A stretch of DNA of 63,025 nt, the filler included, from Bipalium vagum (Eukaryota): assembly GCA_037834085.1 (NCBI GenBank). It is 3 parts of 3 records of this genome, joined end to end, with 100 filler letters (N's around TTAATTAATTAA, not from the genome) between each part and the next. Parts side by side here need not be neighbours in the genome. Positions count along the whole stretch, not along the records: positions 1 to 27,323 come from JBBMKC010092593.1; 2 more parts are not named here. One strand, 5' to 3'. A model generated the notes under the pieces. That model was not told where the DNA came from. It saw nothing but the letters and a program-made list of their open reading frames with translations, and did no database searches. Positions within the stretch are counted from its first letter, which is position 1; each line of letters starts with the position of its first letter. This document shows positions 1,002 to 54,171 of the stretch, piece by piece. The position numbers and the translations under genes were made by a program.

Positions 1002-1326
1002 ATGATGGGTGAAAAAATATACTCTGGTCAATTTATGATTAGCAAATATGACGAAGAATCGGACAATGAAGATATCAAAGACTACAGCAAAGCCAAAGGC
1101 TATAACTTTGAATCAAGTTTATTTAAAAAGAACTTCACTTTTTCCAACGGCACACAAGAAATGCTAGAGATAGATGGCAGTTTGCAGAAAATGTTTCAGT
1201 TTTTGTCAATAGCATTGTCAGGAAAAATAACAAATCCCAAATGGAACTCTTTCAAGGGGGTCAAGTTTCAGACTAAAGATAAAATTAGATTGAATAACAT
1301 CATTTGGCGAGAGTATCACATGCAAT
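1002..1326 (+). CDS. MLXIP: Mondo exon 1 (MCR I-III)
   Basis: IYSGQFMIS; SGKITNPKWNSFKG; DKIRLNNIIWREYHMQ; donor GTAAGT at 1327. Confidence 0.93.
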
Positions 1327-4300
1327 GTAAGTCATCCTTTGTTATAATATATATCTATTATATTTTTCTCAACAATATTTAATTTTTTGATATGAAGGAA
1401 TCAATAAAAATGTTAATAGCGAACATATTTTATTATTGATTTCCCTTGTAAACTTTTTGTTGAACAGTTTAAATAGATCTCTGTTGCGTCTTCGTTTTGT
1501 GAATTGGCCATAAAAGATTAGATAAATGAATCCATAAACCAGTTTCTCAGAAAGCATCTCCGTTTTAGTTTTTTTGACAATAATCTTTGATTGTGATCAC
1601 TCAATCATAACTGGCCTTGAAAGTTGTTTTCGAATGTTCCGGTTTTAGTGAAATATTTATTCATTTATATTCGCTTATTCACGCGGTAGACTATTGTGCG
1701 TTAATATCAGCTTTCTCTGGTCAAATGACGATTGAATCATAACGTCCGTGGTAATTTTGGAGAATTGTTTACCAATTCACCAAAGGGGCTTGGTAGGCTC
1801 CTTTGGTTAACGGAATTTTGTAATATTAAAGGTGTGTTAGCTATGATAGGATTGTATTTCTTTATTGATAGTTTTAATACTTTATTACGTTATTATTATA
1901 CATTTTTAAGAAATTATTATTATATTATCATTTATTATAATATATTCGTTGAAATTCGATTTAACTTTGGTGGTTCATGGAACTAATCCTCTGCAACCCG
2001 TAAAGGCTCCTAGCATATTCACTAATGGTCTGACAGATTCTGCGGTGTTTTTTACCTTGGAAATTTGGATCGGATTATTGAGGTCGGTATTGTATAAAGT
2101 TGATGCTCTTTGTATGAGTAATAGGAAATCTCGTTGGTATTTGCTCCTGGACCTCACATCCTCTCAATGGACAGGTCTCGATATTCTGATTCGATACCTG
2201 TGTAATATTGACAAGTCTGTGCAACCGGTAACAGCTGCTGGTCGTAAGAAAATAAGACAGTTAAATCAAAATAAATCCAATATATTATTATTATATTATT
2301 ATTATTGACAGATATATTCTCCAAGTCATAATACGACATTTATATGAGCTTAATTAAAATATTCCTAGTCTGTTTTCACACCCACATCCATTTTGAATTC
2401 AGTTTTTAAAAATCTTTTTCTTTACACTTATATTTAAAGTTAGAAATGTTTTGATTCACTTTGCACAGATTTCCTCTAATTGTCTCCCCTCGGTTTTCTT
2501 TGAATTTATTTTCTCGAAATAAAAATATAATTTTCTTTACTGCCAATGTAATTGTATAATTTTCAGTTGTCAAAAAACTGAAACCAGTCGTTGTCCAGTT
2601 TGCTTCGCCTCTGACCGATATTACGCCGATGATCCTAGGAGTAAGTCCTCATTGATAATTTTTAATCGATATTTTCGCATCATTTTAAAACAATATAATT
2701 TCATCTTTCCACATTTCATTATGCGAACATTTGTCAATAAATAACTTATATTATCGATTGTGTGGTTAAGACTTTGGTCGTTCTTTTGTTCTAATATAAC
2801 GCTTGATCGATAAATTCGCTCATATTATCACAATCGTTTATAAATTTTTACTGGTTCTATCACTAATAGTTCACCGTGGACCTGTTTAAAAATAATGTTT
2901 ACGGCGACACCCTAATAATGCAAAACTTTTTGTTCACTATTTCAATTGTTTCATATCATTTGGGGTCATGTTTAATATATTTCAATTCACTCAAATTTTT
3001 GTATAATGACGTCATTGTTATGATAGGTTTTATAACTAATGACAAATCTATGAAATCAATCATCTAATGAACTTGGTGTAATTTTTCCAGTTATTACTCT
3101 TTTGTCCGCCTTTCTTAAGTTTACGATTTATTATTAGTAGTAAGAGTAGCAGTATTTATTGTTTAAGATTATTTATCATCAAAGGAAAAGATTTTGGCAT
3201 AACGAAGAAATTGAAAATTTTTAAGAATCTCATTACTCTTGAGCTGGTGATAACAAAGCTACATCATCTAGAAAGAGAGCGCTCGAGAATTTCTTTATCT
3301 GCATTTTTATAAAATATTTTGAACTGTAACATAGGAAATAAGAATATTTTAAATAAACAATAAACAACACACGTTCACTTTCACAAATCAATGATCAGTT
3401 TGGTATCTTCAGTCAGCAAGGTCAACTAATGATTCACAAACTGAAATATTTCTTTTGTTTAAATTGTCGATATTTTAAGACGATATTCTCTTGCAAAGCA
3501 AAAAATCCACCTGACACAAAATACAACGTGGAATTTTTTCAAGCCACTGTTTTAGAAAAGTCACTATTTTGATCTTCTAAATTTTTAAAACAGTTGTAAT
3601 ATTCGTTATCTTCAGACAATGAAATAAATCTTGTATCACTTTTTCTTAGTTTTATGCTTTAAACTAAAGCTTTGAAATTTCACAGGTACAGTATGAACTT
3701 TCAGTTACAACATCATTCGAGTTTCGATGTTTGACTATCTTAACAGTGACCCATTATTGTTATCTTTTATTATGTATTTGTGTATTTAAATGTATTATTT
3801 TTTATCAAATGAAAATCAATAAATCTTCAATAGTAATCGATATAATAAAATTTCTATAAACTTTTGTTTAAAATAATTAAAAATTATTTAATAATATAAA
3901 TTCTCTCTTGGTGAAGATTAAGAATAATTTTTAATATATCCTCAAATTATTATTAAAGGATTCCTAAATAACTTCATCAATCATGCTACGATAGTTCATC
4001 GAAATGCGGCCTGGATAATGGCTCAGGATCATATTTACTTTGATGATATCAGTTATATTTTTCCCATTTTTTAAAGGAATGTTCACTGAGAATTATTCAC
4101 AAATTTACTTTGACTTTCCTTTCTTAAGCATTTTTGAATTTCACTATGGTCACGTGACGAAATTTTTAATGAAAGAAAAAATCAATAATTAAACATCATA
4201 TATAAAATGTTTAAATTTCAATATTATTGTGTAAACATTCGACATTTTCAAAAGCCAAAATAAATATGGTTCTTTATATCACGTATTGTTTAATCGATTT

Positions 4301-6099
4301 TCGATAGAACGTCAAATCATCGTTTGTCAACCGTTGAAGTCATTCATTTGTTATTTAGCAATAGTTCTCTGGGAAAAAATCTGGAAAATGTTTCATTGAT
4401 TTATTACTAAGATTATCATTATTTTTATTATCAATGAGAGATTTGGTTCTACGATATTCATTTTTACACCATCTTTTCCCTTTGTGATGCTTGCTTCAAT
4501 TTGAAATAATGAGCTACCATCATTCAGATATTATATCTATAATTATTGAATGTCGTAAAGATATATTTCAATAAATCAATTCTTGTTCTATGATCATAGA
4601 GTGCGTTATCTTCACAAATGGTCTATTTTAAATGTTAATCTTTTCCAGAGAGCTCTTGCAGTCAATTTTAGGACTGATCTCATTGTTATTCTGAATTCAG
4701 ATTGTTTTGGCCATTGTAAAAATTTGATCAGAAATGTCCGAAAAAGTTTCCTAGACCAATTTTTTATATTAAACATAATAAAATTAAATCATTTAACCAT
4801 ATGGCCTATAAATATTTTAGAGTGAAATTAAAGGTTTTATAAAAATAATCGATATTTCACAATTAAAATTATTGATTTCCAATTAGGTTTCAATTCCATT
4901 GTTTGTTGATCCATTTTGTTCATTTGTTGTTAAATGTCAAATTGGTTTCAATGGAATAAATTTTACCTTGGTATGAGAAACAATATTAGAAATATTAGTA
5001 TAATTGAACTTTTCATCAAACTGTCCTTCCCTCTTAAGGTCGAAAAGATTTTTCTAAACTATTTAGTACATTTTCGAATTACTTTCATCTGGGTAATTGG
5101 GACAATGGTAACAGATCATTTGTGATCCATAATATTTCAATTAATTAATGATACTTTTGTGTCGGATTTTCTTGATTGAAAATTTAATGCTTTTTGATTA
5201 GTAAAAGTATCTTTCTTTTAATTTCATACGCAGACAGTTGTTCTGGAAGGTAAATACTGGAAACGAAAAAATGACATAATTATTGACCAATACAAAAAGT
5301 GGCGAGAGTTTTCGAAACAGAGATCGTTAACGATCTCGACCAGTCACGATGTTACAGCTGGTCTTTTCAAGTCTATAAACGTGCAAAGAAATAGGCATTA
5401 TAAGTTCGCTCGGACCAGTTCTCCACCTAAATTGAATGACATTTTTATGGATTTGGACGATTTGGATATACCTTACTGTGATATGTCTGAAGTAGAGCAC
5501 ACTGCGGAAATTATGCAACCGCAATTGACAAATTTACAGCCACGCATGGACAGCTCAGTGGATTTCCTTAATGATTTTTTCTGCTCACCTCAAAAATCTT
5601 TCAAAAGTCAAAAATCTTTCTCTTCAGAAACATGCCTCAAGTCTTTCGATTATTCCCAGAAAATCAATCCTAATTACAGTTCATATGAAAACAATGTATC
5701 ATCAAATTATTTCCAAGCACCAGTCACGTCAATGTCTCAAACTGTTCCATTGTCATTGTTCAATATCTCTTCTATTGTATCTTCTGAGTCGGGTCTCAGC
5801 CAATTCAATTCACAACGAGCCTTTCACACAGATGCCAAACCAAGGTCCAACGAGGGTGGGTTTTGTAAAACACCTAACCTCTTGTCGATCCTATTGCAGC
5901 CAGTGTGTTGTCAGCCATCACAAAACAAGGTAGTCATTAGCATTATATTGATTTCTTGAATGTAAATTTCGTTTTAAAAACTTGCATTTTTGATAATCTC
6001 ATAAAACAGTGCATCAGTTAACATTATTATTTTAAATAATAATGTCACCAGAGTAAATTGTTTTACAACTTTGAAGTATAATTTTAAGAAAATGGATCG

Positions 6100-9100: not shown

Positions 9101-12100
9101 TCTTAATATTTCATCTCCATCAGTGCTTTTCTATTTTTACCTTGATTTCATATTTGGCTTCAATATGATTATGAAAGAATTGACTTTTTCAGCTATAAAA
9201 AATATATTTTGTTGATAAATTAGAGTTCTCTAAAGTGTATTATCACTGCATATAGAAAGTTAAGTGGTTGTCAATGTGTTATAATCTATATTTAATGCTA
9301 AATGTCGCGTGCAAAAGCCAAGGCCCACAAATCAATAATCAAAAGATCAATTCACGCATACCAATGCACAATATAGGTTAAATTTGGAGAGCAACAAATG
9401 ATTTCATGGTTGTCAGTAGTATGCAGTGCTGTCTGTTTGTCAACAGGCATGTGGCTAGACCTGAATATATACAGTTTTTATTAATATTATGAAATACTGT
9501 TCCACACCAGTGTTATTATTATTTACTATATAAGGTGACCTTAATGGATGTTCAAGGCCTGTGTTATTTGTGGGTGCGTTAGGACAGTATGTACTTCTAC
9601 GTGTTCATTTTCACTTGTTGAAAATTTAGTTTTTCGGATACAACTCTCAGTCTTGGGAATGATTTCGAATTAAAATTCCCAATTATTAAAAATCTATTTC
9701 CTTTAAACTTTGAACTTGTTTCCCTGGTTGGAAGATAGAATATTGGTTTTTTTCTGAACATATTTTGCAGGGTTTAGATTACAGATCAAATGGTATTAAT
9801 TTTTAGATACTCCTTCAACGAAAATTCTTATTCAAAAAATGAAAACCATAATTATTTTATTAATATTTTGGAGACGGAGACTAGAAGTATTTTGTCTGGA
9901 AAATTCTTGAAAACAAATCAGTTTGTAATTGCATAAAGTGAAGAAAATATTCTTGAAAAATATCTATTAAAAATGGGACATTTACCAATTGTAGAAAAAA
10001 GAAGCAGAACATCTTGATTTTTCGAATCAAATCGAATCGTATAAAATTTATTTTCTATGAAAATTATAATATTACAATATTTTGAATTAGTAAAAAATTG
10101 ATATTTTTTAGAAATATTTGGATCTTCATTTTTCATAATTAAAATATTTTTTTAACTTTAATTTTACCATTTTAAAATTCACAATTACTTTAAATCACAT
10201 TATTATTGATTTTTCATTATAATTTTATAATGATATAATTAATTATGAGTATGTTTTAATTGATTTTTAGAATTTTAATAAAATTACATTTTAGTTGGAT
10301 ATAATGCCTTCAAAATATTCTAGACATAATCAATTTAATAAATATTCTTAAAGTTGACTGAGTAATAATAATAGTAATAATAATAATAATAATTACGATT
10401 AAACTTTTTAAATTTAAGTTTTTTATTTAAATATAATTGATCATAATATTTTTTTGTTTCTCTTGTATTCTGGTATCGGAATAAATTTTATAATTTTATT
10501 TAATAATTATTTGTTTTGATGTATAAATGTGTTCTTTTTTAATGTAAGAAGATATTAATCAGACATTTTAATTAAAAATTCTTAACTTATTTTTTATTAA
10601 TATATATTTTTATTAAGATAAAATTAAATCATTACATTTGTTTTTCCATTGTTTTTATTTAGGTTTCAAAAATAAATAATTATCAGAGTTTTCTACACAT
10701 TTTTAGTTTTTCTTTACATTTTTGTATCTTTTATTAATATATTGCAAAATCATTAAATTTCAGAAGAATTAGATGACCTTGTGCTGCTTTATCTGATTAA
10801 TTTTATTTATTTATAGATTAAAATATTATCCGCGTCTAAATTATTTAATGATGATGATATCAGTGAAAACAAATATATAAAGTGCAATGAAGAATCATTT
10901 TAGAACAAACGTTTTCATTTTAATATATTGACATTGACTTTGAATTTATGTAAATGGATTTCTTTAGAATCCAAGATCTTTTTTTCTTGAATATTAAGAT
11001 TATTCAGAAACATTACTCGACTTTAGGTTGTATTAATTGTGTTATTCTCTTTATTTTTACCTTTCTCTTTTCATTGAAATTTTTATTTTTTTAATAATAT
11101 TATGATTAATTAATTGTTTCAAAATTTAATTTTCTGATGATTAATGAATAAACTTATGTTGTAATCATTGCCATCTGTGTCGTTTTCTCTTGGTTCAATG
11201 ATGAGAGATAACGTCAAAAACAGTCAAATTGAAATGTTTACTTTCAGCCAATATCATCTACGACTGTTGGCCAGTCACATAATACATCTCTGATTGCAAC
11301 AGTGCCGGGTTATTGTGGATCTCAAATTCATTCGCAAACCGCAATAGTCAGTTCCAATAGTCTGCAACAGATCAGCAGCTCCTCTAATGTCGGCAATGTG
11401 TGTCAGAATCCATCTATCAGTAAGCCCAAATTACTACATATGTATAGTCGAAAGATATATTGTGGGGTAAATTACTAAAAAAATATATTTAATATTAAAT
11501 ATCTAGAAACAGTTTTCCAGCATTGATAAGGTGCTGTGTAAATTATCTTTACATTATTCAAAATAGGGCTCGCAAAAAACTGACATTTTTAAAACAGATT
11601 TTATTCTACTGTCATTTATCTAATGTTCTCAGGCCTTAACACACTATTATACTTCTGCTTTCAAAAGATTCTCGGTAATAGAATTTCAGAAAATTCATTT
11701 ATCGATTGATTTATTAAGTTTTCATTCACATAAATCCATTAGGCTTATTACTTAAAGAGATCCTTTTTTAAGTAATCACATAAAAATCGACCACCATTTT
11801 TCGAATCTGAATGTTTGTTTGAATAACAACCGATTGGAATAAATCTTTATGAGCCGAAAGATTTTTCGTGTCCCATAACTCTGGAAATGATACAGAAATG
11901 TTTCTGTGATCAATTTCCGAAGCACGGTTTTATCAGAAGGTGAAGAATTCATGGAAGATGACCAACGTTACGCCATTAACTAACGATAGACACATTAGGA
12001 AAATTAAAAATATGGTTCATCAGAGAGATATTTAAACAAAGTTGATTATCAATTAAGACGTGCCAATTGATTTGAAAGATAAATTTAAATGAGACGCATT

Positions 12101-15100
12101 ACATCTCGACTTTTTTCGAGGCAATTACATTTTTGCATGAACAGCATTGTCTTATCTCTCAAAAAATGCTTTCTGTGGACCATTATTTGTTGGAAAACAT
12201 TATTATCGGTGATGAGACATAGGTATATCAGTACTATACAGAAGCAAGTCGACAGGGAAGTAAATGGCGTGCGAAAATCAAACAGAAACAAAAAAGACCT
12301 CGTCAAAGTTATTCCAAAATCAAAATCATGTTTGCCTTTTTGTGATTTTCGTGTTTTTGGCCCACTTCGAATTTCTTACAAACAGTAATTAAGAAATATT
12401 ATATGCAAGTCATTAAACAATTCGTGGATTGTTTACCACGATAATGCACAATTTCATACTGCTCTTATTATTCTTGACGTTTTTGGGATACATCAAACCA
12501 AAACCATTCCCAAAGCACCATTATCACCTTATATGAATCCGTGTGACTTCTGCCTTTTCCTTCTGCTGAAGTCATCATTTCGCTTTTAATAGAGTAAATT
12601 ATTTTTATAAGATTCCGTTAAGTTTTCCGTCCAGTTCTCAAAAATGTACTCAAAACATATTTAATGGCTGCATTTATTATCAGTGTCTTGTTGGTCGGAT
12701 TCTCATCAATCGTTTCGATTTCTAGATTTGAATGAATGAACAATGTTCTATCATTAATAAATATTATTAAACAGTGTAAATTTGTTTGTACCTAATGTAA
12801 ACATTCATTATTCGTAAATTTTTCAATCAATCTTTTGATAAATTTCACAACAGATTAATTTAAAACGTAAAATTGTCAATCAACTCATGGTAGAATGGTT
12901 TACATAGTTTTTTAGCAGATTAGAAAATTGGAGGGTATTTCGAGTTCTTTTGATTGAAGGTTGGTTGAGATTTTCCTACATCTGATGCCTAAACCATTTT
13001 TGATGGAAATACATACATTTTCTATGGTTGATTGACTGTGATAGTTTCATAACTTCAACAATTTTTTCTCAATTTCTTGTTTTATATGATCCCATGTTTG
13101 TTCATAGATCAATATTTAAACCATTTCTGTTACATAATATTTAAAACGACAATTATATATAATTCAGTCCATTTTAACAGAAATATAAAGTTATCCAAAA
13201 ATTCCAAACGAAATTTTGTACACTGAAATTTTAAATAGCAATATAAACCTCTAAATGTTAAAATTCTAGAAATGCACCCAAATTTCTTATCACAGAAACT
13301 ACAGAACACATTTTAAGTGAATTGTGACATTAAAGAGGAATTTACCTTTTAGTGATTTTTCAGTTAGGAGACACAAATATTAGGTAGTGTAATCTGAAAT
13401 ATTTGATTAGATGATAAATAGAAAAAATCAATGAAATATGTATAAGAACCTTTTTAATCTAACCAACCGCTATCAAACATCTTTCAATTTTCTTGGAACT
13501 AATAATGAAGGAAAATCTCGAACGATTTGACTTGAATTTAATTCCATGTGAATCATTAAATCAGCATTTTCAATGACCTTCCTGATCATGTCACGGTCTA
13601 AGTTTGATCGGCTTTTGTTACCTTCCGCATATTTCACATACCAACGCTTAATTGTGTATTCATTACCTGTACTATTGCCGAATACCTGATTAATTGTTTT
13701 AACAGCCTCCAAAGTTGTGTCTTAATTTTCATTCGTAGAAGTAAATTGTTTGTCAGTTTTCAACCCATTCTTGATATACTCTAAGAATTTAGTGGATTAT
13801 TTAAACAAATACAAAAATATTATATTTTGATTTGAGGATTTCAAATTGCAATCTCTTGTGTATGAAACCTTAACAAAAAGATTGCAAAAGAGTTTTATTA
13901 AAAATGGATTACTAAAATATTAACCCGTTGGCAAGAAAGTTTGAACAGTATATTTTAAATAAAATTTATTTAGAGGCTTTTGATGACTTATTTTACTTAA
14001 TATTGAAAATCAGTAAATTTATAATAGACAACTTAATATAATCATTATTTGTAATATAAAAATTGATCATTAATTAAAATTAATCACCGTGTAGCCCGCG
14101 AATTTTTAGAAACTGTAACAATTACCTATGTATAACCAACATTTTTATATGCCTCGCAGTTTCATGTATAACCTATATTACATAAATGACCCGTGTATAA
14201 AGTAAATTAAAGATGAAGTTATTTTATATACTTTATATTATTTAAATTTCCATATCTAAAAACAATAGAAATCAAGAAAACTAGGTGTACGAGAAAATCG
14301 TATTCAGCTTCAACAAATGTGGAAGCGGTTTAATATACCAAAACAACTCGAATCGAAAAGCCCCTGGATTGGTCTTTACTTGCAATAAGAGGAGATAATG
14401 AAAAGATGGTTAGGAATGAGAATAAGTGCATTTTTACTAAGAAATCATTATTAGTTTTAGATTCAATGTCTACTTATCGTCGTGAATCTAACATAGTCAT
14501 TAAATTGTATAGGTAATACTCATATTGTCATCATACCGGGTGAATTGACCTCAAGACTGATGTTGACCCCTGAATATTGTTGTTAATCATTCACTTAAAT
14601 CATTTGTTAATAAAAAATGGAATGAATGAATGAAAGTGGTGAGCATACGTTCAGTAAATCATGAAAGCAAAGAAAGGTATCATATGCAAAAATATGCAAA
14701 GAACTCAATAGTATTGTCATTGAATTTGTCAAAGCTAAAATAATTTCCAAAGACAATTATGAAAATTTAGGAAACATCAAAGAAAGCAATAAAATAAATG
14801 AACATGACCTGATCATGGTGAAATATTTCCTTTTGTTAGCTGAGGAATCTGGTTTTGAGGGTTTTTCATCTACAGATTAATAAATATTTCAAAGAATATA
14901 TTTTGTGTTTCGATTTTTTTGTAAAATAAAATTACTGAATTTTAAAAATATGAAAAGGAAATTTATAACTCGAGGGTCATACACGCGAAAATACGGTATT
15001 TTAAACTTAATGAAAATCAATTTTAGTGAATTAGAAATTTTAATTATTGGTATAATTATTAATTATCATTTTATTATATTAATAATCTAAATTAAAGTAT

Positions 15101-16346
15101 AAACAATAAAAGTTCAAGTTCAATTTTCTTCTAATAGTTTGATACCTTTTAAATATTTTTCGACATTAATGTTCCTAAACATAATTCACTTAAATAAATA
15201 TATACACACTAAAGTGACATTGAAATTCTTCACTGCAAACAAAGTTTGGTTGGGTTGTCATAATTCTTATGTTAAGAAAAAGAAATATTGACTTCGATAA
15301 TCCTTTCAATCACTATTCAAATGATACTTTTCAGTTAGTATAATATAACATAGTTGGTATCTGACCATAAAAATAATCCGCAGAATTTCGAAATATTGAA
15401 AATCTATTATAAATAATTTCATGTATAGAATTTTATAACGAAATTATTGTTTCCTTTTAAATATGCTCTCCCGTTTTCCATTTCACTTGAGTTTAGTAGG
15501 TTATCAAACTTATAGCCAGTCTATTCCGAACAGTAAATACAGAAAGCCCAACTTGATGAAGATGAAGCACAACCTTTCCGCTAACACCGTGGTGCAGCAA
15601 TATTTAGATGAACTTAACTCCATCCTCACCACAAATCAAGATCAAAATAAAATATCAAAAGCCGCTCTTCTTCACAAAGCATCTGAGTGTATTAAACGAT
15701 TGCGAAATGAAAAATACCAGATTCAATCTGAAATAATAGCTTTGCAAAACGAAATCGACGCGCTCCAAAACCGATTCAGGTATCGTTTCTCCTTCAGTTT
15801 TTATTTTCTATTTTGCTTTTAGAAGATAGATTTATTGATTTTTAGTATATATCTTGTATTTTATTATCTGCTCGAAACTCGGGCTCTTTGCCTTTCTCTT
15901 ATTTGTGTCAAAGTTTTTATCAACTGTAGAAGAAAAATGAATATCAAAGTGAACTGTTTTTAAATAATTAATGCCACTTCCTCTTGTCGACAAACTCAAA
16001 AACCATACCTGTACCATTTCGGTCGCTCGCTGTTTCTGCTGTAGATCTTCATCTAGAAGTCAGAAAATAGAAAATAATAATTAATTCCCAAAAAACTATT
16101 TATTTTCAATAGAGAATATTTTATTATGATTACAATTTAATGATTATTTTTTAACTACTTCCCTTACGCTATCAGTAAATTTTTATTTTTAGATAATTTG
16201 TAGTGTTCGTTTCATTTTATCAATAATAATGCTATGATTTTAATTACTTTCAAGCGAATCTTAAGATAATTCAAGGATGCTTAAAACTTGATGAGATGGT
16301 TTTCGGTACATTATTGACCTGTCTTTGATGATGAAAATCGATAATG

Positions 16347-16396
<50 letters not shown>

Positions 16397-19300
16397 AACA
16401 ATAATAAATAATAATAAAAATATATTATTAAAGAACTAGGTTTAATAATATATAATAATAATGATTATTAATAACTACAAAAGGACTAAATCTTAATAGT
16501 TTACAAAAGACCCAAGATAAAATTGATTTTTTGACAATGTTGGACTTCATGTTATCATCAGATGCTAAAATTCATTTTTACTTGACATTATATGACAATT
16601 GACATTGTGCATTATGACAATAAAGCTTATCTGTATCAGTTCTTGCGTGGTACTGGTGGTATTTCACTGTCACCAAACATGTTCTGTGGTTACGTAACAT
16701 ACGAGGGTGCGTTTTCATTCTGTTTATAATCATTTTTGAACATTGGTTTGACTTGTTTCTCTTATCATTCTGATTCTTGTATCTTGTTAATTCGTGAACT
16801 TTACTTTCGTACACAGTTTTAGATAATAAGAAAAGAAATGTCAAAATTTGTTTTTGTCAATTTTTACGGTGCTGAGATTTATTTATTTTTACACTGCCAA
16901 AATAAAACCTGCACGTAGATTTTGTTCTTTTGGGTTTCCTCTACTCATTTCAGTCAAGTATGTGGTTTTTGATTAATTTTGGCCATATGAATTTTAATCA
17001 TAAAGTGAAATTGGTATATTTTTTCAGTCGTCGACTTTGCTTTAGTAGGCTCTTTCAATCAATAATGTATTAATAGATATTTTGCTAATGTTAAGAGTTG
17101 CTTATTGTTTTATATCTTTTTCTGTTGAAAAACGGGCCCTGTGGCTTATCAGCATGATAACAGAAAATTTCTTTTTCACTCTTGTTTTTCTGTTAATTTC
17201 TCATGGAATTTTGTTTATTATCATTCATAACTCGACCATACTTTAGAAGAATATCATTTGAGGGCTACGCACACAGATCAACAGAAAATGCTGTACAGTT
17301 AATGTTTCCTTTGGAAATAGTTTGGCAAGTGCACCTCAATTTGAAAGTTTTTCGTCTCTGCAGATAATTTTTCACGATAATTAATTCCAGTAAATATTCA
17401 ATATTAAAAAATTTTCAGAAATAAATAAATCTTATAGTCTTATTTTCAATATACCGTATCAGTACATTATGTTGAAATCAATAAAAATGTTTTCTTTAAA
17501 TTTAAAAATAGTTGAAATTTATTTTTTTCTCTCTAAGCTCTACTTTTATTTACTAAAATCATTTTGAAATACTTATTATTATTATTATCACTTTTATTGT
17601 TGTTGTTTTCTTGTTTATAACGGCTGTTAAGAATTCCAAGTCTTCTGTTCCTTCAGTTTTTATGGTATAACTCAAGTGTTTTACTGATCTAAGTCAATTT
17701 ATTCAACAATATATCAAATATTAAATCTGTAGCCACCAAACGTTTCTAAATAGATAAATTTAAAATTACGAATAATTAATAAGATTATAAAAAATAATTA
17801 AATAAATAGATTTTTAATATAATAATAATAATATAATTTAAATATTAATAATTAAATAATCTAAAAAAATGATTATGAGAGTACCAAACCAACATTTTAC
17901 ATAGCCCAATTCTTGATGACTAAAAGTTATGAGAAAAAGGTTCAACATATTTTTTTAGTTAAAAATGTGTTAGTATCCATTTTGATTTAACTGCTGTATT
18001 TCCCGTTTGTTTTAAATTATAATTTTACTCTTCAGAAACAAAATTTTGAAATTATTTAACTTATTAAAAATTATAATTTCGTAATCAGAATAATCAAAAT
18101 GTTATCAATTATTTTCAAAATTTTATGAAACGAGAAATTCATCAATTTTAATACATAACAACGTACGTATTGCCTTCGCAAAAATTTCTTATAAATTACA
18201 TGTTAATAGAAATTTTTAAAAATCAATATCCATGACCTTGGTGTGAGCCTTTTGTTCTTTTTTATATATTAAAATTAGAGTTATAATTTTAAAAAAAATA
18301 ATAAAATTAACCTTGAAATAAATCATTAAAACAATTTATAAATACGACTAAATTATAAATTATAAATCAACTAATTTTTCAACCATTTAGTTTATATTTT
18401 ATAAATATATATTTATATATGTTTATATTTTATATTTTTTTTTATATTTATTTTTCTTAACTTTCTATTGTCCTAAAGTTGAGTAAAGGATTTTTTCCTT
18501 ATAATCAATTTTATCATACAATTACATATCTTATCCTTGTGCTAATGATTTTTTATCAATTTCTTATTTCATATTTGAACTTATTACATAAATGAAATTG
18601 TTTATTTAGTGTTTTTTGTTCTCAACTTCCTGCCACAGGAGTGTGCTTGAACTCTAATCGGAGTTCTGAAGGTCGAAAGTGGTTCGATGAATTTGTCATT
18701 AAATCCAGTGCAACGAACTGGAAATTCTACATAGTAATGTTCTGTGATACCGTTAAACATAACTCATTTTTCTCAAGTTCTGCATGATGTTTGAAAATTT
18801 GTTTTCCTCATACAACAATTCCGTGAACACGCTTTCCATGGAGGCATTAGCCCACAATGTGGCCTCGTGGCTGGAAAAGGAATGCTCTTTGATGAAGCTG
18901 AGATTAAGTAATTTATTATTTCAATTTTATGTAATGAATTTTTGATAAAATCCGCTATTTTTGGTTGGTTATTGAATGGTGATGGTAGTTTTTAAAATAC
19001 TTTTATAATTTAAATTTTTTTGCTGGTAAATAATTGAAATATTCTTAAGGATAATAGGGAAGATAATTGTTGTGTTCCGCGATGGTAATTGTTCTTATTT
19101 CCAACAACAATAAAAACAGTGAATTTTCTGTAACTTTAAGTTTTTTCATAGAAGAGTGTTTATATTTTTAATTTTATTATTGTCACTAATATTAAAATTC
19201 TGTTTCTATTCCTTTTTAGATTGCAATACATGGAATATCCTATTTAGGGCTTTATTCTTATAAATATTGTAGATCTATGAATCTTTCAACATCATTTTTG

Positions 19301-20560
19301 AAGATCAAACTCAACTGTAAATGAATGATATTTTTAAAAGATCTAAATATCGGAAAATTGATTTTTAATTAAAATTTTTAACTTCATAAAAAAATTTGGA
19401 AGTTAACCAAAAGTGGAAAAAAACCTTTTTTGAATTCGTTGTGAATTCAACAGACGATTTGATCTTTATCATAATTTAACAAAAGCCCCTCGCAGTAGGT
19501 CTGGAATCACAATTGTTTTCGGAGATTTGAGAACACGCTTTGAATTAAATTCTTGTCCTTTCGTTTTGTGATCTTCCAATGGATTTTGAATAGAATTCGA
19601 AGGTAAACATATTTGAGAATCAGTTCCACATTTACTGGACAAATAACAAAATTTCAAATATTTCTACATTTGCAAATCACTTGATTTGAAATACAATGAA
19701 TTCTTTATAAAATCGTTGACGTTACGGACATTAGTTGATAGCCGATATAACAGCTGCAACATACAAAAACCAGATTTGTGCCAAAAAAACACAATGATTG
19801 TTGGTTGGTGGTCTACGATTGAGTCGATACTTCTTTTCTTTCTGGATCCGTGTTAAAAACTAACAGCGTAAACAAAGATTGTGTTGAACATGTAATAATG
19901 AACGAGTAAAAGACCTGAATTGGTCAATAGAATTTTTTTAATCCTGCTATATGATTCAAAGATAATTAAGCAAAACCTGAGAGAACTTAAGATTTGAAAC
20001 TTGTCATATTATCCATTTTTACGTCATTCCTTAGTCAAATTAATGGGAATTGTAATGTCCTCTAAGGAATCTAAGGTTGAATTTCTAACTCGTCATAAAA
20101 ATATTCATTTTTTATATTTATTTTATGAATATGAATGTACAAATTTTTATTCAAGTGCATAAAGATATTAACGTCGACGTCCACTCTTTCTCTCAATCTT
20201 TCAAAATTCTTTCTATTTTCCATTGTGATGCTTAATATTATTATTTCAGCTGTCATAAATGGTATGAGAACCTTAAGCAGGAAAACGTCTATTGTTCATA
20301 ACCCAAAAAAGGTCATGGAAGAAGTCAAGGCGTTAATATCAAACACCAGCTTTTCGCATAATAATAATAATAATCAAGATGCCTCAAAATGGTCATCGTC
20401 ATTATCATCTGATAACAAGCCAGTCAATTCCTTGGGGTTCTTGGATTCGGACCTCAACCAATTCAAGCAATCAAAATATGATACCAGTGACCATTGTTGG
20501 CCTCAAATGATTGCACATCACTCTCGATTAGGAAACACGCCCGATAATACGGAAATATAG
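1002..20560 (+). CDS. MLXIP: Mondo/MLXIP/ChREBP-family bHLH-Zip transcription factor, spliced: join(1002-1326,2567-2640,5234-5929,11248-11419,15497-15779,18610-18733,18778-18907,20250-20560), about 704 aa
   Basis: All junctions are GT-AG and phase-consistent; the exons total 2115 nt. Family motifs appear in order: IYSGQFMIS, IDGSLQKMF..GKITNPKW..FKG..KDKIRLNNIIWREYHMQF, QFASPL, VVLEGKYWKRK..YKKWR, QPQLTNLQP, KISKAALLHKA plus zipper, QLPATGV, NWKFYIF, WLEKECSL, TVINGMRTLSRKTSI. Confidence 0.9.
2567..2640 (+). CDS. MLXIP: Mondo exon 2
   Basis: tttcag acceptor; (F)VKKLKPVVVQFASPLTDITPMILG; donor GTAAGT at 2641. Confidence 0.88.
3960..5130 (-). mobile_element. highly degenerate Gypsy-like pol remnant in Mondo intron 2
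   Basis: Only weak RT/RNase H-like peptide scraps on the minus strand, with many stops; tentative. Confidence 0.25.
5234..5929 (+). CDS. MLXIP: Mondo exon 3 (MCR IV onward and Ser-rich linker)
   Basis: cgcag acceptor; TVVLEGKYWKRKNDIIIDQYKKWREF, in frame with ORF 5381-5959; probable donor AAG|GTAGTC. Confidence 0.85.
6100..6160. repeat. (AAT)n microsatellite
   Basis: About 20 perfect AAT units. Confidence 0.95.
6700..7600 (+). mobile_element. decayed Tc1/mariner-superfamily transposase
   Basis: KHQPYK*QIGQLL, VIEPFFF..VYGDRYRPMI, LQQD*APPH, WPVCSSDLTPRDF*LW (compare WPPRSPDLTPLDFFLW). Confidence 0.75.
7860..8491 (-). mobile_element. decayed mariner transposase, N-terminal part
   Basis: MIE*QIRRGIWYLFKL...FNKFR HTH; IPHD; VKCDAQ*IAYDYR..QWLDTDE (compare VTCDEKWIxYDN..QW). 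Confidence 0.7.
8850..9900 (-). mobile_element. possible LINE (RTE-like) endonuclease remnant
   Basis: Weak YAPT-like (NAPTNN) and NGxRL-like scraps; heavily decayed. Confidence 0.25.
11248..11419 (+). CDS. MLXIP: Mondo exon 4 (Ser/Gln-rich, poorly conserved)
   Basis: GC-richer island; ctttcag acceptor; open frame PISSTTVGQSH...NPSI; donor GTAAGC; phases (0 in, 1 out) bridge exons 3 and 5. Confidence 0.65.
11810..12585 (+). mobile_element. decayed mariner transposase
   Basis: IIIGDET*VYQY..KRPRQSYSKIKIM; HDNAQFH; APLSPYMNPCDFCLF (D,D34D type). Confidence 0.8.
13473..13770 (-). mobile_element. mariner N-terminal HTH fragment
   Basis: EAVKTINQVFGNSTGNEYTIKRWYVKY. Confidence 0.65.
14086..14998 (+). 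mobile_element. internally deleted pogo/Tigger-like element (DDE_1)
   Basis: LVLDSMSTY, IVIIPGELTSRL, VVNHSLKSFVNKKWNE; the right end reads ...cgcgaaaatacggta, a pogo-type TIR. Confidence 0.7.
15497..15779 (+). CDS. MLXIP: Mondo exon 5 (bHLH-leucine zipper, degenerate basic region)
   Basis: LDELNSIL..KISKAALLHKASECIKRLRNEK..LQNEIDALQ; tandem TAGTAG acceptor (exon start 15497 or 15500); donor AG|GTATCG. Confidence 0.88.
16341..16395. repeat. (AAT)n directly followed by (ATT)n, a self-complementary microsatellite
   Basis: ...aataataataatattattattatt... Confidence 0.85.
16850..17340 (-). mobile_element. possible piggyBac-like remnant
   Basis: GNINCTAFSVDLC (compare NITxDNFFTSV) and KKKFSVIML-like scraps; weak. 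Confidence 0.25.
18610..18733 (+). CDS. MLXIP: Mondo exon 6 (start of DCD)
   Basis: atttag acceptor; SVFCSQLPATGV...WFDEFV..TNWKFYI; donor GTAATG. Confidence 0.9.
18778..18907 (+). CDS. MLXIP: Mondo exon 7 (DCD)
   Basis: FCMMFENLFSSYNNSVNT...SWLEKECSLMKLRL, after a 44-nt intron; donor GTAATT. Confidence 0.88.
19380..20040 (+). mobile_element. decayed mariner transposase in Mondo intron 7
   Basis: PDLCQKNTMIVGWWS..LLFFLDP (compare PKLHQKKVMVTVWW), LVNR. Confidence 0.55.
20250..20560 (+). CDS. MLXIP: Mondo exon 8 (end of DCD plus C-terminal extension, stop)
   Basis: atttcag acceptor; TVINGMRTLSRKTSIVHNPKKVMEEV; TAG at 20558-20560. Confidence 0.87.
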
Positions 20561-21879
20561 GCAGCCTGAACTGCCAAATCATTAATTATCGCCCACTGGT
20601 GATCATTGATGAAGCTGGAATTTTGATAATTTTCTAAAGTGAAATGCTAAACAAAGTCACATGATATTTGTATATAAACATATTCCGTGTTTATTGTCTA
20701 TTAACGGTTGTCCGAGTTTATTATTATTACTTGTTATGGAGGTGATATGTGAGGCAACTTTGATCGAAATGAATTTTCCACTTTCATTATTATTATTATT
20801 ATTTGTTTTTTAAGTTTCCTTTTAAGATAATTATCAGTAACCTAAATGGAAATAATTATTTACTTTTCCACAAAAAATATTACCATCTCTTTTAAAGGGT
20901 TTAATGAATGAACTTTTTAATTGAATTTTAGGAAACGCTAATTGAATTCGGGTCGATCTGACATTGTTGAACAATATTTTTACCTTTCTCATTTAATTTC
21001 TTTATTGATGATATTGGTTATAAAAATTGAAATCTTTTTTTTTAAAAATTCTAAGTCCTTGGTATTTTGATTCTTAAAGTCAAAGTTTTGGCATTGCTAT
21101 TTTTACTTCAATAAAAATGAAATTTTATAAATCTCCGACCTCTTTGGTTTAATCCACGTATTTTATTTTTTGGCTTACATAATATTTCTTAAATTATAAA
21201 ATTTTTAATAAGATAAATGTTCAAATTATTTTTTATGAGCCAAACTTTGAAGAATTCAATATTAATATTTAGGTCACTAACATTTATACCTAAGGGTCAA
21301 AAATAACTGAAATTTAATTTATTAATAAATTTAAACTTTGCTGTACTATTGAAGCATATTTTCTGAAATATATTTATACTTCATGAAACCTCAATCTAAT
21401 CTACTTTTATGAATCACTCTGTTTTAGCTATAATGCATAATATTTTTCGAACACTGATCTAACGTAATCCGATTGGTGCGTTATGGTTTTAGTATCTATA
21501 TTTAATTGCTTTTACAAGCTATTGTGTAACAAAAAGATTAAGTTAATAATTAAGGAAAATAGCTTAGAAGAATTTTTTAAAAATTGGTGTGTACAATCAT
21601 GATCCCGGTGATCCCATTGATTGATAATGCCAGGAGAATCGGTGACTTCAAGCTGACTACTGGGGTTGAGATCGTGGAGCTTCTCTTCAAAGCTGATGGT
21701 TGCTTTGATAACGCATGTTCAGGGAAAGATCCTCTTTGAGTGTAGCCTGCATATTCATTCATTCTTTTTATTGTCATCGGAAGGTTTTTTCTGAAACATG
21801 GAGTGAATATGAGGATTTAACTCCTATCGAGTCATCTAATTATCCCTATTGATGCTGTTTTCTGTTAGATAAATCTGAT

Positions 21880-22467
21880 AAATACATATGGCTGCAGCAG
21901 AAATGGAAAGGTATGAATATCAAGCAAGAATTCAGTACTCCCTATCAACACAAATCCAATGGTCTTGTGGAGAGGATAATAAGAACAATTCCAGACATGA
22001 TAACTGCTTCAATAAAGAGTGATTGTGAAGAACAGGAGTGGCACGAACTTCTATCGATGATCGAGTTTAGCATTAATGCTACACAGCAAAGCTCAACAAA
22101 ATTCTCACCGTTTGAAATTGTCTACGGTCACAAAGTGAATATCCATTCGGTATTGGAAGAGGTTATTGGGATTCAGACGGATATCACAAAGGAAGTGAAA
22201 ATAAATTTGGATGCAGTTGCAGATAACATGGATCAATTCGAAACGAGCAAACGCGGACAATGAATTTTCTCGATTTGAGATTCAGTGTTGGTCAGGGTAG
22301 AACCACACAAGAGGAAGAATGATTTTCAATATGAAGGGCCCTACGAAATTTCGCTTTACTTGTCTCCTAATCAAGTGAAACTAAAAGGTCCAGATGACAT
22401 CAAGCAGAGAAGAATAGAATGGTTGAATAGATGGTCGTCTTCTTGTCCGAATGGCGAGTTACACTAA
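21880..22467 (+). mobile_element. Gypsy/Ty3 integrase C-terminal remnant with GPY/F motif
   Basis: STPYQHKSNGLVERIIRTI...IEFSINAT..TKFSPFEIVYG; VLVR..YEGPYEI. Confidence 0.85.
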
Positions 22468-22828: not shown

Positions 22829-24260
22829 ATGAACCCAATGTCTAACAGTAGTATAATTACTGGGAGAAATAACAAAAGTTCTTCAATATTCAAAGGAATA
22901 CTTAAAATGGGGCTTCATACCAGCCAACCATGATAAACATTTACCTTTCGTTTATTTACATTTCCTTTTATGCCAGCAATGATTGTCTAATGAATCAATG
23001 AAAAAAGGTCGTCTTCAGGCGCATTAATGGTGAAACATAGTGCATATGTAGATTCAGATTTACATTATTTCAAGTCTTTAAATGATAAGTTTGAAAAGCG
23101 GTCACCTATAAAGTCTCTGTTCAATGCACAGACTATTTCAATCAGTTGTAAAATTGTGGCTAACTATAAAATTTCCCTACTCATTGCTATATCTGGGAAA
23201 AATTATACCATAGGGGAGGAATTACCAGCAATATCTGAATATGTCAAAACAGTTCTGGAAAAAGATAACAGAGATGCGAAAGTCATTTCACTTAGTAATG
23301 ATAGTGTCAGAAGAAGAATAGATGAAATGAACAATGACATTGAAACACAATTTGTTGAAAGACTAAAATCAAGAAATTTTTCACGACAGCTGGATGAATT
23401 AACTGTAGGAGATAGAGGCCATATTGCTAACCTATGTAAGATATATTGATAAAGATGAATTTGCTGAAGAACTGTTATTCTGCAAATCTATAAAGACCAC
23501 CACTACTGCCTCTGATATATACAAAAAAGCTCAAAGACTATTTGAATACCAATAGCATACCAATGGAAAACATGTCATCTTGTGCTCCAGATGGTGCTCC
23601 AGTTATTATGGGGAAGAAATCTATCTGCTTAAAATAAATGAAAGATGCGAATCCTGACATGGTTCTTGTTCACTGCGTTATTCATAGAGAGAACTTAGTG
23701 GCCAAACATTTTCCTCCTGTGCTTAATGATATTATGGAATTAGTAATAAAAATTATCAATGCCATCAAAGCCAATGACAGATATCAGCTTCTTTTCAAGC
23801 AGTTTTGTAGAGATGAGAATGCAGACCATATGAGACTTTTACTTCACACTGAGGTCAGGTGGCTGTCGAAAGTTAATTGCTTAAAAAGACTCATAAAATT
23901 ATTTAATGTTCTTGGTGAATTTTTAAGGGACGAAATTGAAATGAAAAATCTACTAACCACTGAGAACAAAGCATTTTTCAGTTACTTGGCAAATATTTTC
24001 GTAAAACTGAATGTGTTGAATTAACAGCTTCGGGTACAAACAAAACTCTTGTTGATACAAACACAAAGATATTTGGCTTCATCACATTATTAGACTTATG
24101 TCAAAAACAAAGAAAGAAACTTTGAACTGTTTCATTCGCCAAAAAAGTGAGATAATTGATGCTGCTGTGCTTGTTATTGTGAATCATCTGAAAATATTGA
24201 CATCTGATTTTAATGAAAGATTTTCTGATTTGAAGCTAATTTCCATCATGGGTACACCGA
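22829..24260 (+). pseudogene. hAT (Buster/ZBED5-ZBED8-like) transposase pseudogene
   Basis: QYSKEYLKWGF, LSNESMK, SLSNDSVRRRIDEM, FSRQLDE, DGAPVIMG, HCVIHRENL, LLLHTEVRWLS; frameshifts and stops. Confidence 0.9.
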
Positions 24261-24519
24261 AAATTAAATAGGTATCTTTTGATTTTGAATTTTATTTAGA
24301 AAAATAAAAAATCGTAAAATTCTAAAATAAATACTAGAAATAGCTAATGAATATAAAAAAATAAATACAAAATATACAAAAATTATAAAAATATGAAACT
24401 TGTATGATTTAAAAATTAAAAGACGAAGACATTGCAAAATTGAATTTAAACGTTTAGGTTCTATGTTTATTTTCTTTCTTAATTTTAACACTACTTATAC
24501 GTCTTTTTTATTTAATATA

Positions 24520-25375
24520 TATTAGGGGCTATTTTCCATATATGACTTTCAACTATTTCGTTCTATGAAGAACATTCTTTCGGGTACGTGATTCAAGAAT
24601 ATTGAAGAGGTTAATAAATTCATCGACAACTTCATTCTACTTAAGAACAAAGACTTCTTTCATCGGGGTATCCATCTCTAACCTGAAAGACTGGAAAGTT
24701 GTGAATAATGACGGAAAATATTTTGATTGAATGTGTTATTAATAATAAAAATTATTCGTTTTAAAATGATGTGAAAGTATGCATACCCCTAATACATATC
24801 CACTATTCTATGCAAAAAAGGCTTTGGTTTGTGTCTATTGAGAAACGAAAGACAAGTAATGAGTTGATTGGTAATGTTCTTTTCGGATAAATTATCAGGA
24901 ACTAATTTTCCTACTTTATGAATCTTTCCCAACTGATGTAACAGTCGAATTATAGTACTTTGGTTAACATGTAACCTTCTTGCAAATTCTACACCTGATT
25001 GAGTAGAATCCTCTTTCAAAAGTGCTTCCCAGTCCTTCGAGCTCATCTCATGTGGCCGTCCAGTGCGTTCTTTATACCTGAAATCAAAATCATTGCTTTT
25101 GAAGCATCGAAACCATTGAGAACATATGTATTGCAAATGGTCCGAGTTACAATGTTTTGCTATGATTAAACAAGAACATAAATTGGCGTATATGCATTTT
25201 ATTTACTTCCATTATAACTTTTGCAAACGATTTGGTAAATTTATATTCATTTTCAAATTAATGCTATAAATATAATCAATATTGACTTACTTAAAAAAAA
25301 TACAAATTTTTAAATGTAATATTATTTAAATTCCACATATACATCAGCGCTATGAACTTATGCAAACTTTTAATA
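24520..25375. mobile_element. rearranged mariner: 5' half on the minus strand (25212-24795), 3' end inverted on the plus strand (24530-24794)
   Basis: Minus: MEVNKMHIRQFM..QWFRCFK..RTGRP..GKLVP..FLHRIV. Plus: DFQLFRSMKNILSG..FFHRGIH..VVNNDGKYFD*. TIR-like copies at 24767-24794 and 25348-25375 lie in direct orientation. Confidence 0.8.
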
Positions 25376-26176: not shown

Positions 26177-26700
26177 ATGATACAACGTCGCAAGTCTTAC
26201 ACGGTGGTTTTTAAGCGTGAAGCGGTGAAGCACCGGGATGTGCATGGAACATTAGCCACAGCTAATTATTTCAATGTAACTGAAAGAATGGTTAGAAATG
26301 GGTTGCGGATAGGGATATCCTCGAGGATATGCCAGCAACAAAAAGAACCCGGCGTTACAAAAGGCCAAGTGTGGAAGAAATTGAGGATGACATTTACAAC
26401 TGGGTTTTGCAAAAGAGAAACCACAATAGAGCAGTTAAAATGATAAACAAACCAGAGCAAAGAAGTTGGCAGAAGAGCACGGTTACCACGAATTTAAGGC
26501 ATGTTCGCGTTGGTGCAACTTATTCATGGTACGAAAAAAATTGTCAGTGCGAAGAAGAACAAGTGTAGGACAAACACTGCCATGTGATCATCAGCAAAAA
26601 TAATTTTCTTTCTGGAAGTTTGTCAAAGCTGAAGCTTTAAACATTTCTCACAACTTAGGGAATATCGACGAAGTTCCTATTCCTTTGATGTCGTGTATGG
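26177..26700 (+). mobile_element. pogo (POGK-like) transposase N-terminal remnant (Brinker-like plus CENP-B HTH)
   Basis: RRKSYTVVFKREAV; EIEDDIYNWV; LSVRRRTSVGQ; GNIDEVP. Confidence 0.8.
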
Positions 26701-41917: not shown

Positions 41918-42256
41918 CCATTTAAACATTGGACAGCAAGGACAGCCTCATTGTAATTGATCATCTGAACGAATCCGTAACCGGAACACGTGTTGGTGAT
42001 CAGATCCTTTGATAAGAAGACGGACTGGACTGCTCCAAATGGATTGAATAACTGCCATATGTTGTCGTCCGTGGTGTCCTGACTCAAATTATTGACAAAA
42101 ATTATCCAATTTCTGAAACCGTAATCAGAAATGGAGGGTGTCGTTTGATTTGTACATGGTATACAGGTAAATGGAACTAATGGAGTTAGAGTGTTTTGAT
42201 TGAATGATTCCAGCGTGTTCAAAGGGAGAATTGGAAATGATGGATGAAATGGAGTA
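41918..42256 (-). CDS. elav: ELAV/Hu-family RNA-binding protein, exon encoding hinge plus RRM3 (other exons not identified)
   Basis: WIIFVNNLSQDTTDDNIWQLFNPFGAVQSV...CSGYGFVQMINYNEAVLAVQCLNG matches Hu/ELAV RRM3; acceptor ttaag and putative donor GG|GTTCGT. Confidence 0.82.
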
Positions 42257-43578
42257 CTTAATAAACAATCAAATTAGTTTCACGACATCTCCTTATCTCA
42301 AGAAAAATATAACGAAAATCATTTAAAATAGAAATAAAATTATTTTATTAAATATTTCTTAAATAAACCTCAATAGGAATGTTTATTTAAATATTAAAAG
42401 TTTTCATTTCAAAAATTCACAACAATATTAACCAATAAAAGATTTTATATTTATTTTATTTGATAAATATTTTTAATATAAATTATATAAAACTATATAT
42501 ATATATATATATCTTTTTTTGAATTTTATAAATAATTATAAAAACTAATTGATAATAATAATGATGTTATTTCATTTATTTTGGAGTATCGGATTCACCA
42601 ATTCAAACAAATAAAGATAAAAATTGAGCTAAAAGAAATAATTAAATTTTGAGTTTAAAAATATTGGCGTCTATAATCAGCCCATTGTTAAATATTATTA
42701 ATTAAATAAAGTATCCTTAATTTGAACGATGGACCATGTAAAAGTACATTATAATTGAAAATTATAAATTTCTCGAAATAAATTTTATTTATATTTTAAA
42801 AGTATAAAATATTCCTGGTTTACGTTTTTCTATTTTGAGGTACATTAAACTAAGTTTTATTCAATAATTAAATTATAAATAAAATGAATTAATCAATAAT
42901 TAAAAAATTAAATATTGGTTAATTTTATAAAATTAACACTTGATGAAAAAATAATTAATCTTTTTTTTTATTTTTATGCCTTTGTATAAATAATAAATTA
43001 CAATTGGAACCACTTTAAACAAAAATTATTTATTTTGTATTGCCTTTCGTGAAAACAATTAAGAATAGAAGACAATATTAATTAAGTATTGGTTGAAATT
43101 AATTAATATTATTGCATTTATTAAAATTTAAAATTAATAAAAATAGACAAATTAATTAATTGAAAAAATGTAGGTAAAATAATAAATAACAAAAAATAAT
43201 ACCCTGGTTACAAAATGCAATATATCGAAAGATAAGGAATACATAATAATGACAATTTATATATAATTACATGATGACAATTGAAAATTATAATATTATT
43301 TTGTGTATTATTAATTCATTATAAAATTAATAATTTATATTTTTAAGGATTTACATATTCACCATTACAATAAATGGTCTTTCAACTAACGTCTTTATTG
43401 CACATTTGCGTTTAATGATACTAATGTCGATTCTACTGACTGTCAATGAATGTCTGACCATTCAATGAAATCTGTGACAACCAATACAAATGATAATCGG
43501 TATGAACGAAGTCAAACAAGTATAGAGGGTGAGATAATTTGCATATTTCGGATTCTATTGTTGTATCAACTTATCAAC

Positions 43579-46861: not shown

Positions 46862-46961
46862 NNNNNNNNNNNNNNNNNNNNNNNNNNNNNNNNNNNNNNN
46901 NNNNNTTAATTAATTAANNNNNNNNNNNNNNNNNNNNNNNNNNNNNNNNNNNNNNNNNNNN
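46862..46961. other. artificial assembly linker N44-TTAATTAATTAA-N44
   Basis: Identical to 27324-27423. Confidence 0.95.
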
Positions 46962-47208
46962 CTCCTTGCGGACCCTGATCTAATCTTGGCAATTTAGGTT
47001 CGCCATTGTCAAGATTAGATCCTTTTTAGAAATAATTATTTGCCCATTTTTGTACTTTTTAATTAATTATTATTTTATTATTATTAATTTATTCTGACCC
47101 TCTTGCGGTCTTAATAATTAACTGATAATAATCAATTTAAACCCTATTGCGGTCTCTACCATATACTTTACAAGGGATGGTAAGGATGTGTCCTTGGCTA
47201 ACCCAACA
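46962..47208 (-). repeat. LTR-like repeat copy A (truncated by segment end)
   Basis: Starts TGTTGGGTTAGCC on the minus strand; alignable by eye in direct orientation with 56295-56518. Confidence 0.7.
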
Positions 47209-48356: not shown

Positions 48357-48537
48357 AGTACTATGTATAACCAGACTTTGAGGACAGGACCCCAACTTTT
48401 TTTTCACTCACCCCCCAGAAGGGGCTCCCTCAAAAAATAAAAAAACTTTGGGGGCATTTTTTTCTCTTTTTCGGTACCGGAGCTCCCTCAAAATAGAAAA
48501 AAATTCCTCTCCTCAAAGACTGGTTATACATACTACT
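48357..48537. repeat. 181-bp fold-back with Polinton-type termini
   Basis: 48357-48384 matches the reverse complement of 48510-48537 at 26/28; ends AGTACT...ACTACT. Confidence 0.85.
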
Positions 48538-52441: not shown

Positions 52442-52494
52442 ATTATTACTTATTTTTTAGAAATAAAATTGATTTTTAAAATATTTTTATTTTT

Positions 52495-53200: not shown

Positions 53201-53246
53201 GCTATTTTTTACTATTTACTATTTACTATTTTTACTATTTTTTTAG

Positions 53247-53820: not shown

Positions 53821-53869
53821 TACAATTATTTTTTTATTTTTTCATTAATATTAAAAATTTGTAATTTAA

Positions 53870-54145: not shown

Positions 54146-54171
54146 ATTTTTTTAATTTTAATTTTAACTTT

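Follow-up and report, generated by a model that had tools for sequence, protein, structure and literature searches.

The window, by which we mean the whole stretch of 63,025 nucleotides analyzed here, is AT-rich (19–33% GC per 2 kb), contains spliceosomal introns, and harbors many broken mobile elements. It carries a Mondo gene on its + strand, which was modeled as eight exons encoding 704 amino acids with zero internal stops and with in-phase GT-AG junctions, in agreement with the original prediction of an intact, phase-consistent gene. The features of this gene are as follows.

1002–1326 (+): exon 1, with MCR1 (YSGQFMISK), the MCR2 export-signal-like helix, GKI, and the MCR3 14-3-3-type helix; homologue search, alignment, and invariant sites.
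2567–2640 (+): exon 2, the end of MCR3 (VKKLKPVVVQFASP); AG/GT ends, phase fit, and alignment, with predicted junctions.
5234–5929 (+): exon 3, with MCR4, MCR5, an acidic MCR6-equivalent stretch lacking the Ser/Thr motif (5432–5473), and a single LxxLL (5882–5896); alignment and invariant sites.
11248–11419 (+): exon 4, a Ser/Gln-rich linker; X2 and X3 contigs, in which 11419 is spliced to 15497 across GT..AG ends.
15497–15779 (+): exon 5, with the remodeled basic region, helix 1, loop, helix 2, and leucine zipper; Pfam HLH and contigs.
15559–15615 (+): the remodeled segment KMKHNLSANTVVQQYLDEL, followed by the loop; no Glu9, Arg12, or Arg13, and apparently about one helical turn short; registers, P0001, and structural model.
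15649–15779 (+): helix 2 and zipper, the heptads reading L-I-L-L and I-K-I-I-F; heptad pattern and AlphaFold2.
18610–18733 (+): exon 6, a linker (QLPATG) and the start of the DCD (WKFY); gene model, with P0001 crossing the exon 5/6 junction.
18778–18907 (+): exon 7, DCD, preceded by a 44-base intron; gene model and invariant sites, with predicted junctions.
20250–20560 (+): exon 8, the end of the DCD, the C-terminal tail, and the stop codon; predicted.

Only the joint between exons 4 and 5 is shown by contigs. For junctions 3-4 and 5-6, support comes from loose contig ends and from P0001, a protein 85% identical to the window protein and distinguished from it by indels upstream. Among the contigs of a related organism (organism B), one loose end translates like the end of window exon 3, and the other crosses the exon 5/6 junction into exon 6. 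The remaining junctions are predicted, and the acceptor of exon 8 was picked from several candidates by its pyrimidine tract and the resemblance of the product to homologue tails. Two other acceptors for exon 5 were rejected: position 15500, which is likewise in frame, because the contigs use 15497, and an internal acceptor immediately ahead of DELNS that would have been spliced to a basic exon upstream, because nothing of that kind scores. Intron 4 holds several multicopy repeats (11900–12600, 13470–14100, and 14300–15100) on which many contigs pile up; some of these pieces are presumably mariner-like.

Contigs from runs X1, X2, and X3 all carry exon 5 without gaps. One X1 contig covers 12191–16100 with 0 differences from the window; it does not provide independent support, because the assembly may itself derive from X1. 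In organism B, contigs from two studies (X2 and X3) join 11419 to 15497 with GT..AG ends, the spliced joint being present in two of the four runs examined; the kind of X2 is unrecorded, and X3 is RNA by guess only. Over 15497–15758, the organism B contigs differ from the window by 39 substitutions and 0 gaps; therefore, no insertion restores the missing turn. Up to 15579, the part of exon 5 covered by the codon comparison (the remodeled segment runs on to 15615), 10 of these 39 differences occur, and six of nine changed codons are synonymous, as are both changes listed within MKHNLS. A contig from organism C (X5) covers exon 4, not exon 5. Of the 19 positions of the remodeled segment, P0001 shares 18 with the window; the loop agrees at 7 of 11 positions, helix 2 at 14 of 15, and the zipper at 24 of 28. 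A hidden basic exon was sought with a b5–b13 profile on the + strand of 11420–15620, where the best score was −4.2 against a panel leave-one-out minimum of 5.3; the two best matches of this profile in the window (9.8 and 8.6) both lie on the − strand.

We consider it very improbable that the segment reflects an error of assembly, an overlooked exon, or a pseudogene in decay. X1 is possibly the assembly's own source and contigs drop rare isoforms, but P0001 carries the same segment, organism B splices the same exon gap-free, the frame runs through 704 codons without a stop, and the hidden-exon search came up empty. The outcomes against which the original prediction had been set, namely an alternative exon, a sequence error, or a pseudogene, thus find no support in the contigs, the exon scan, or the open frame. 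As judged from these comparisons, the remodeled segment is real, and its conservation extends to two related organisms at the least and probably to a third.

The gene was then placed among Mondo proteins. We used a comparison panel of 149 representatives besides P0001, drawn from the best 150 of 183 matches; a few panel members may be Mondo-like paralogues and not Mondo proper. Homologue searching with exon 1 returned flatworm Mondo/MLXIP proteins only (seven matches among 59 candidates, E 8e-15 to 6e-11). The MCR3 sequence WREYH, present in the window, was found in 11 of the 69 panel proteins with MCR3, all of them named flatworms. In a tree built from the MCR, HLH, and DCD regions of 58 proteins having both MCR3 and DCD, plus the window model, the window grouped with six flatworm rows (SH-aLRT 99, from a quick search carrying a long-branch warning). 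In a FastTree analysis of helix 2, zipper, and DCD, which excluded the basic region and comprised 153 rows with five N-terminal fragments left out, the window and P0001 were sister to seven cestode/trematode Mondos with a support of 95, and Macrostomum was placed elsewhere. Both trees contain long branches and were built without an Mlx/Max outgroup; in both, the window falls with flatworm Mondos. The affinity so indicated is to flatworms in general, and a triclad or monogenean host is a guess. Together with the retention of 22 of 24 invariant Mondo residues (as listed in the accessible part of PMC3323566), comprising 16 of 16 MCR3–5 sites and six of eight DCD sites (P813 and L819 differ), this placement bears out the original assignment as a Mondo orthologue-type gene.

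The trees also bear on whether this gene is a derived duplicate beside a canonical Mondo, in which case normal ChoRE control would be retained and this copy would be a modulator. A second copy more than 20% diverged would escape the contig comparison, and the homologues considered are the best 150 of 183 matches. However, the 153 tree rows include no E..RR protein as sister to the window and P0001, and the X1 depth over 15300–15627 amounts to one contig at 80% likeness, so that we regard a duplicate as distinctly improbable.

The architecture is that of the Mondo family (MondoA/MLXIP, ChREBP/MLXIPL, fly Mondo, and worm MML-1), with MCR1–5, LxxLL, HLH-zipper, and DCD in the same order. MCR1–5 were recognized by alignment, including the MCR2 export-type helix. 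The HLH-zipper dimer surface is represented by Pfam HLH positions 18–53, regular zipper heptads, and two modeled helices, and a DCD/WMC domain is present, its exon 7 and 8 junctions being predicted. Helix 2, zipper, and DCD were thus found to be kept, as had been proposed. The accompanying proposal of a conserved MCR sensing module held for MCR1–5 but not for MCR6, whose motif [ST]DTLF[ST] is absent from the window in the alignment. A relaxed form of this motif occurs in 37 of the 58 panel proteins, and all eight named flatworm rows counted are among the 21 without it. The MCR6 motif has been proposed to bind glucose-6-phosphate (PMC3323566, in part), whereas the portion of PMC6962712 available implicates GKL139–141 instead and reports no significant effect of S287A. 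The place matching GKL reads GKI in the window Mondo. Given that the MCR6 motif is absent and GKI stands at the GKL place, sugar sensing by this protein is therefore only putative.

The basic region differs markedly from this pattern. In the accessible part of PMC3177325, residues b5, b9, and b13 contact the bases, b12 and b13 make backbone contacts, and b5, b9, b12, and b13 have near-zero entropy across the Max/Mlx network. Anchoring on helix 1, we tried nine registers, and in 9/9 of them positions b9, b12, and b13 were never Glu, Arg, and Arg, which confirms the claimed absence of E and RR and sets the protein outside the group B E-box-binding bHLH-ZIP factors. Consistent with this, Pfam HLH matched the window Mondo at profile positions 18–53 of 53 only (E 1.9e-05), against positions 8–53 in the Macrostomum Mondo, and the Echinococcus protein was likewise matched from position 8. 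Register scores were −17.7 for a four-residue deletion (LSA at b6–b8), −26.4 for a three-residue deletion, and −48.0 for the ungapped alignment, under a scheme that has no gap penalty, favors deletions, and uses a profile built from E..RR rows; the register of the remodeled segment is therefore not fixed. The proposal that the spacing is 3 amino acids shorter agrees with the distance from His to helix 1, but the best-scoring register suggests that four residues, about one helical turn, may be gone where EQKR stands.

AlphaFold2 modeled two helices and started helix 1 at the Ala of LSA with modest confidence; the helix modeled for helix 2 and the zipper spans residues 54–93, with pLDDT values of 86–97 in blocks from residue 61. 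In a structure control, P0126, the helix begins at the Ala after Ser, as in the LSA register, and little weight was given to this control because its model runs helix 1, the loop, and helix 2 together as a single helix. The count of Lys and Arg in b1–b13 is 2 in the window, equal to the panel minimum of 2 and not lower, with a median of 5 over 133 rows. The window bHLH has zero basic residues from the His to the loop; K-M-K-H and the Lys at the loop end are retained and could contact the DNA backbone.

Among the panel representatives, 135 of 149 contain ExxRR, nine begin after the basic region, and five lack ExxRR. The last are a coelacanth model (its cluster mate carries AEQKRR), a fish model without that stretch, a record with E..KR, and two single records with a partly eroded basic region. 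In its full form, the remodeled segment is, as far as these alignments tell, absent from all Mondos examined outside the related organisms described above. A search for short homologues of exon 5 gave two candidates, none of which scored, and 0 of 79 pattern matches in a metagenome scan were confirmed. Searching the PDB by sequence returned weak bHLH-ZIP matches only (Tye7 and Max, E about 0.45), with no Mondo or Mlx chain among 15 matches, and the ESM Atlas returned generic HLH clusters at 0.88, which we treat as a lead only.

As a separate observation, P0064, P0138, P0147, and P0128 form a Mondo-like clade (support 98) with its own basic-region erosion: His5 is lost in P0064, Glu9 is changed to Asp in P0147, and in P0128 Glu9 is changed to Gly and Arg13 to His. 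This clade may be a second, independent case, although its members are single records that may be erroneous.

The named flatworm Mondos (Macrostomum, Echinococcus, Spirometra, Mesocestoides, Rodentolepis, Schistosoma, Trichobilharzia, and Calicophoron) share with the window WREYH in MCR3 and the lack of His5 and of the MCR6 motif, and flatworm Mondos are its nearest clade in both trees. Unlike the window, all eight of those with the domain keep E..RR. None of these eight has His at b5, so His5 was probably lost early and the window His need not be His5; it is thus doubtful that the claimed spacing can be anchored on a basic-region His. Compared with the Mondo family at large, the window lacks the b5 His, b9 Glu, b12 Arg, and b13 Arg, its recognition helix is 3–4 residues short, and the MCR6 Ser/Thr motif is absent. 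The loss looks stepwise in these alignments: the sampled flatworms as a whole lack His5 and the MCR6 Ser/Thr motif, and the EQKR turn is gone from the window lineage alone. Very long bHLH loops were seen in the cestode/trematode Mondos (P0008, P0088, P0091, P0114, P0116, P0139, and P0143), whose basic motif starts 55–103 residues before helix 2 and in which, where checked, His5 and the MCR6 Ser/Thr motif are absent; the window loop, in contrast, is of normal length.

This history raises the reading that the whole Mlx arm has left DNA, with Mlx lost or equally eroded and the window protein serving, alone or as a homodimer, as a cytoplasmic or organelle-bound metabolic scaffold. The early absence of His5 and the MCR6 motif in the sampled flatworms is compatible with such a course, as is the description of trematode networks as reconfigured, but an Mlx orthologue is kept in Schistosoma (both from part of PMC3177325), and helix 2 and the zipper of the window protein are still strongly conserved. 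We judge this scaffold role to be improbable. No Mlx-type sequence was found among the homologue proteins retrieved.

Given the residues missing from the remodeled segment, it is very likely that the window Mondo half of a dimer cannot bind CACGTG. The protein likely acts by holding its partner, because the DNA-reading residues are gone and the regulatory and pairing domains are kept. As an explanation of the locus, we see about an even chance that this flatworm-type Mondo without E-box-reading residues is a regulated, non-DNA-binding partner that holds Mlx off DNA. In such a mechanism, the window Mondo half would be unable to grip CACGTG, and pairing with Mlx would persist through helix 1, helix 2, the zipper, and the DCD. 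The MCR2 export helix and the MCR3 14-3-3 helix would still set the cellular location, so that the window Mondo would regulate the supply of Mlx left over for Mlx homodimers or for Mxd-type repressors. The signal feeding into it may be metabolic, with no particular metabolite specified.

Published work supplies the parts of this scheme. Mlx is described as the obligate partner of MondoA (PMC6363388, in part), and the bHLHZ and the DCD are each presented as an Mlx interface and as a control of cytoplasmic retention (PMC3323566, in part). An engineered ChREBP in which two basic-region arginines are replaced (R673A/R674G) acts as a dominant negative that blocks the response to glucose; like dominant-negative Mlx, it has lost basic-region Arg with the dimer surface left, according to the available part of PMC1761440. 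By analogy, this behavior fits an Id-like role for the window Mondo, although those proteins are laboratory mutants acting against a wild-type copy, whereas the change in the window is natural and conserved.

Id/extramacrochaetae proteins are HLH factors without a working basic region that sequester their partners; these small proteins, which target E proteins, lack both a zipper and a DCD. The window Mondo shares with these group D proteins the apparent lack of a functional basic region, as judged by Pfam and the registers. It is not a small, zipper-less HLH protein of the Id clade, having 704 amino acids, MCRs, a zipper, a DCD, and homologues named Mondo/MLXIP. We therefore describe it as a Mondo by descent and architecture that is likely, by analogy, an Id-type inhibitor in action, an analogue and not an Id member.

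Several points weigh against sequestration. The Mlx partner may be altered or absent in this lineage; the new segment is so strongly conserved as to suggest a separate function, for which plain sequestration has no need; LxxLL with the acidic MCR6-like stretch points to a coactivator role; and the retained K-M-K-H and loop-end Lys could contact DNA. A coactivator tethered to chromatin, through Mlx half-site contact, reading of an altered site, or docking of LxxLL to nuclear receptors, stays in play because the new segment is strongly conserved and LxxLL is present, unlikely as we hold it to be. CHOP is an example of a bZIP factor that reads a changed site. The segment is conserved at 18/19 positions and retains Lys, His, and Asn, and MCR4, MCR5, and the acidic activation-like stretch are retained along with LxxLL, a box linked to nuclear receptors (PMC3323566, in part). 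Against tethering, the stretch from the His to the loop is free of basic residues, and the engineered Arg-less ChREBP blocks and does not activate (PMC1761440, in part).

Sequestration of Mlx, our preferred reading, would take its strongest form if the only Mondo of one flatworm lineage had become an inhibitor under metabolic gating, a naturally occurring Id-like member of the Myc/Max/Mlx superfamily that releases or withholds Mlx; we put this forward tentatively, the balance being against it. The Mondo:Mlx pair is a conserved animal route from sugar to transcription. If the stronger form were true, nutrient control of transcription would run without a ChoRE-binding activator, with the sensing and shuttling module kept. 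A lineage that dropped its DNA-contact residues with the rest conserved would amount to a natural separation-of-function allele, which opens to test the roles of Mondo without DNA binding: partner titration, tethered coactivation, and cytoplasmic roles. If the organism is a planarian, as is suspected, RNAi and feeding/starvation assays are routine, and a link to food-dependent growth and shrinkage would be directly testable. In the literature searched, which was mainly open-access, we found no description of a natural Mondo without a basic region or of a planarian Mondo. Supplementary alignments of Mondo evolution papers could bear on this novelty, and a genome-wide survey of planarian bHLH genes (Cowles and colleagues, 2013) reportedly exists that may list this gene.

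The remainder of the window contains mobile-element debris and fragments of other genes. LTR-retroelement remnants lie at 47118–48403 (−), 44058–44390 (+), and 21853–22263 (+), among them pieces of an aspartyl protease and of a reverse transcriptase, while 44058 holds an integrase core; the piece at 21853 is presumably integrase-like. Broken DNA-transposon-like ORFs at 22994–24271 (+), 24789–25202 (−), and 26177–26568 (+), which we take to be hAT-, mariner-, and pogo-like, gave no Pfam match in the three pieces scanned. A cluster of short, broken ORFs at 48700–56000 resembles a Polinton-type endogenous element; we assume that it includes polymerase-, minor-capsid-, and protease-like pieces, and a weak double-jelly-roll match at 51468–51875 (−) fell below the cut-off (E 0.0057). 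Paired 44-N runs with ATT-type microsatellite flanks at 27324–27423 and 46862–46961 are assembly gaps or masks far from the Mondo gene. Finally, an exon with an RNA recognition motif (E 1e-17), presumably ELAV-like, was found at 41863–42273 (−), and a C-terminal exon of an inositol polyphosphate kinase (E 5e-15) at 57606–58013 (−).
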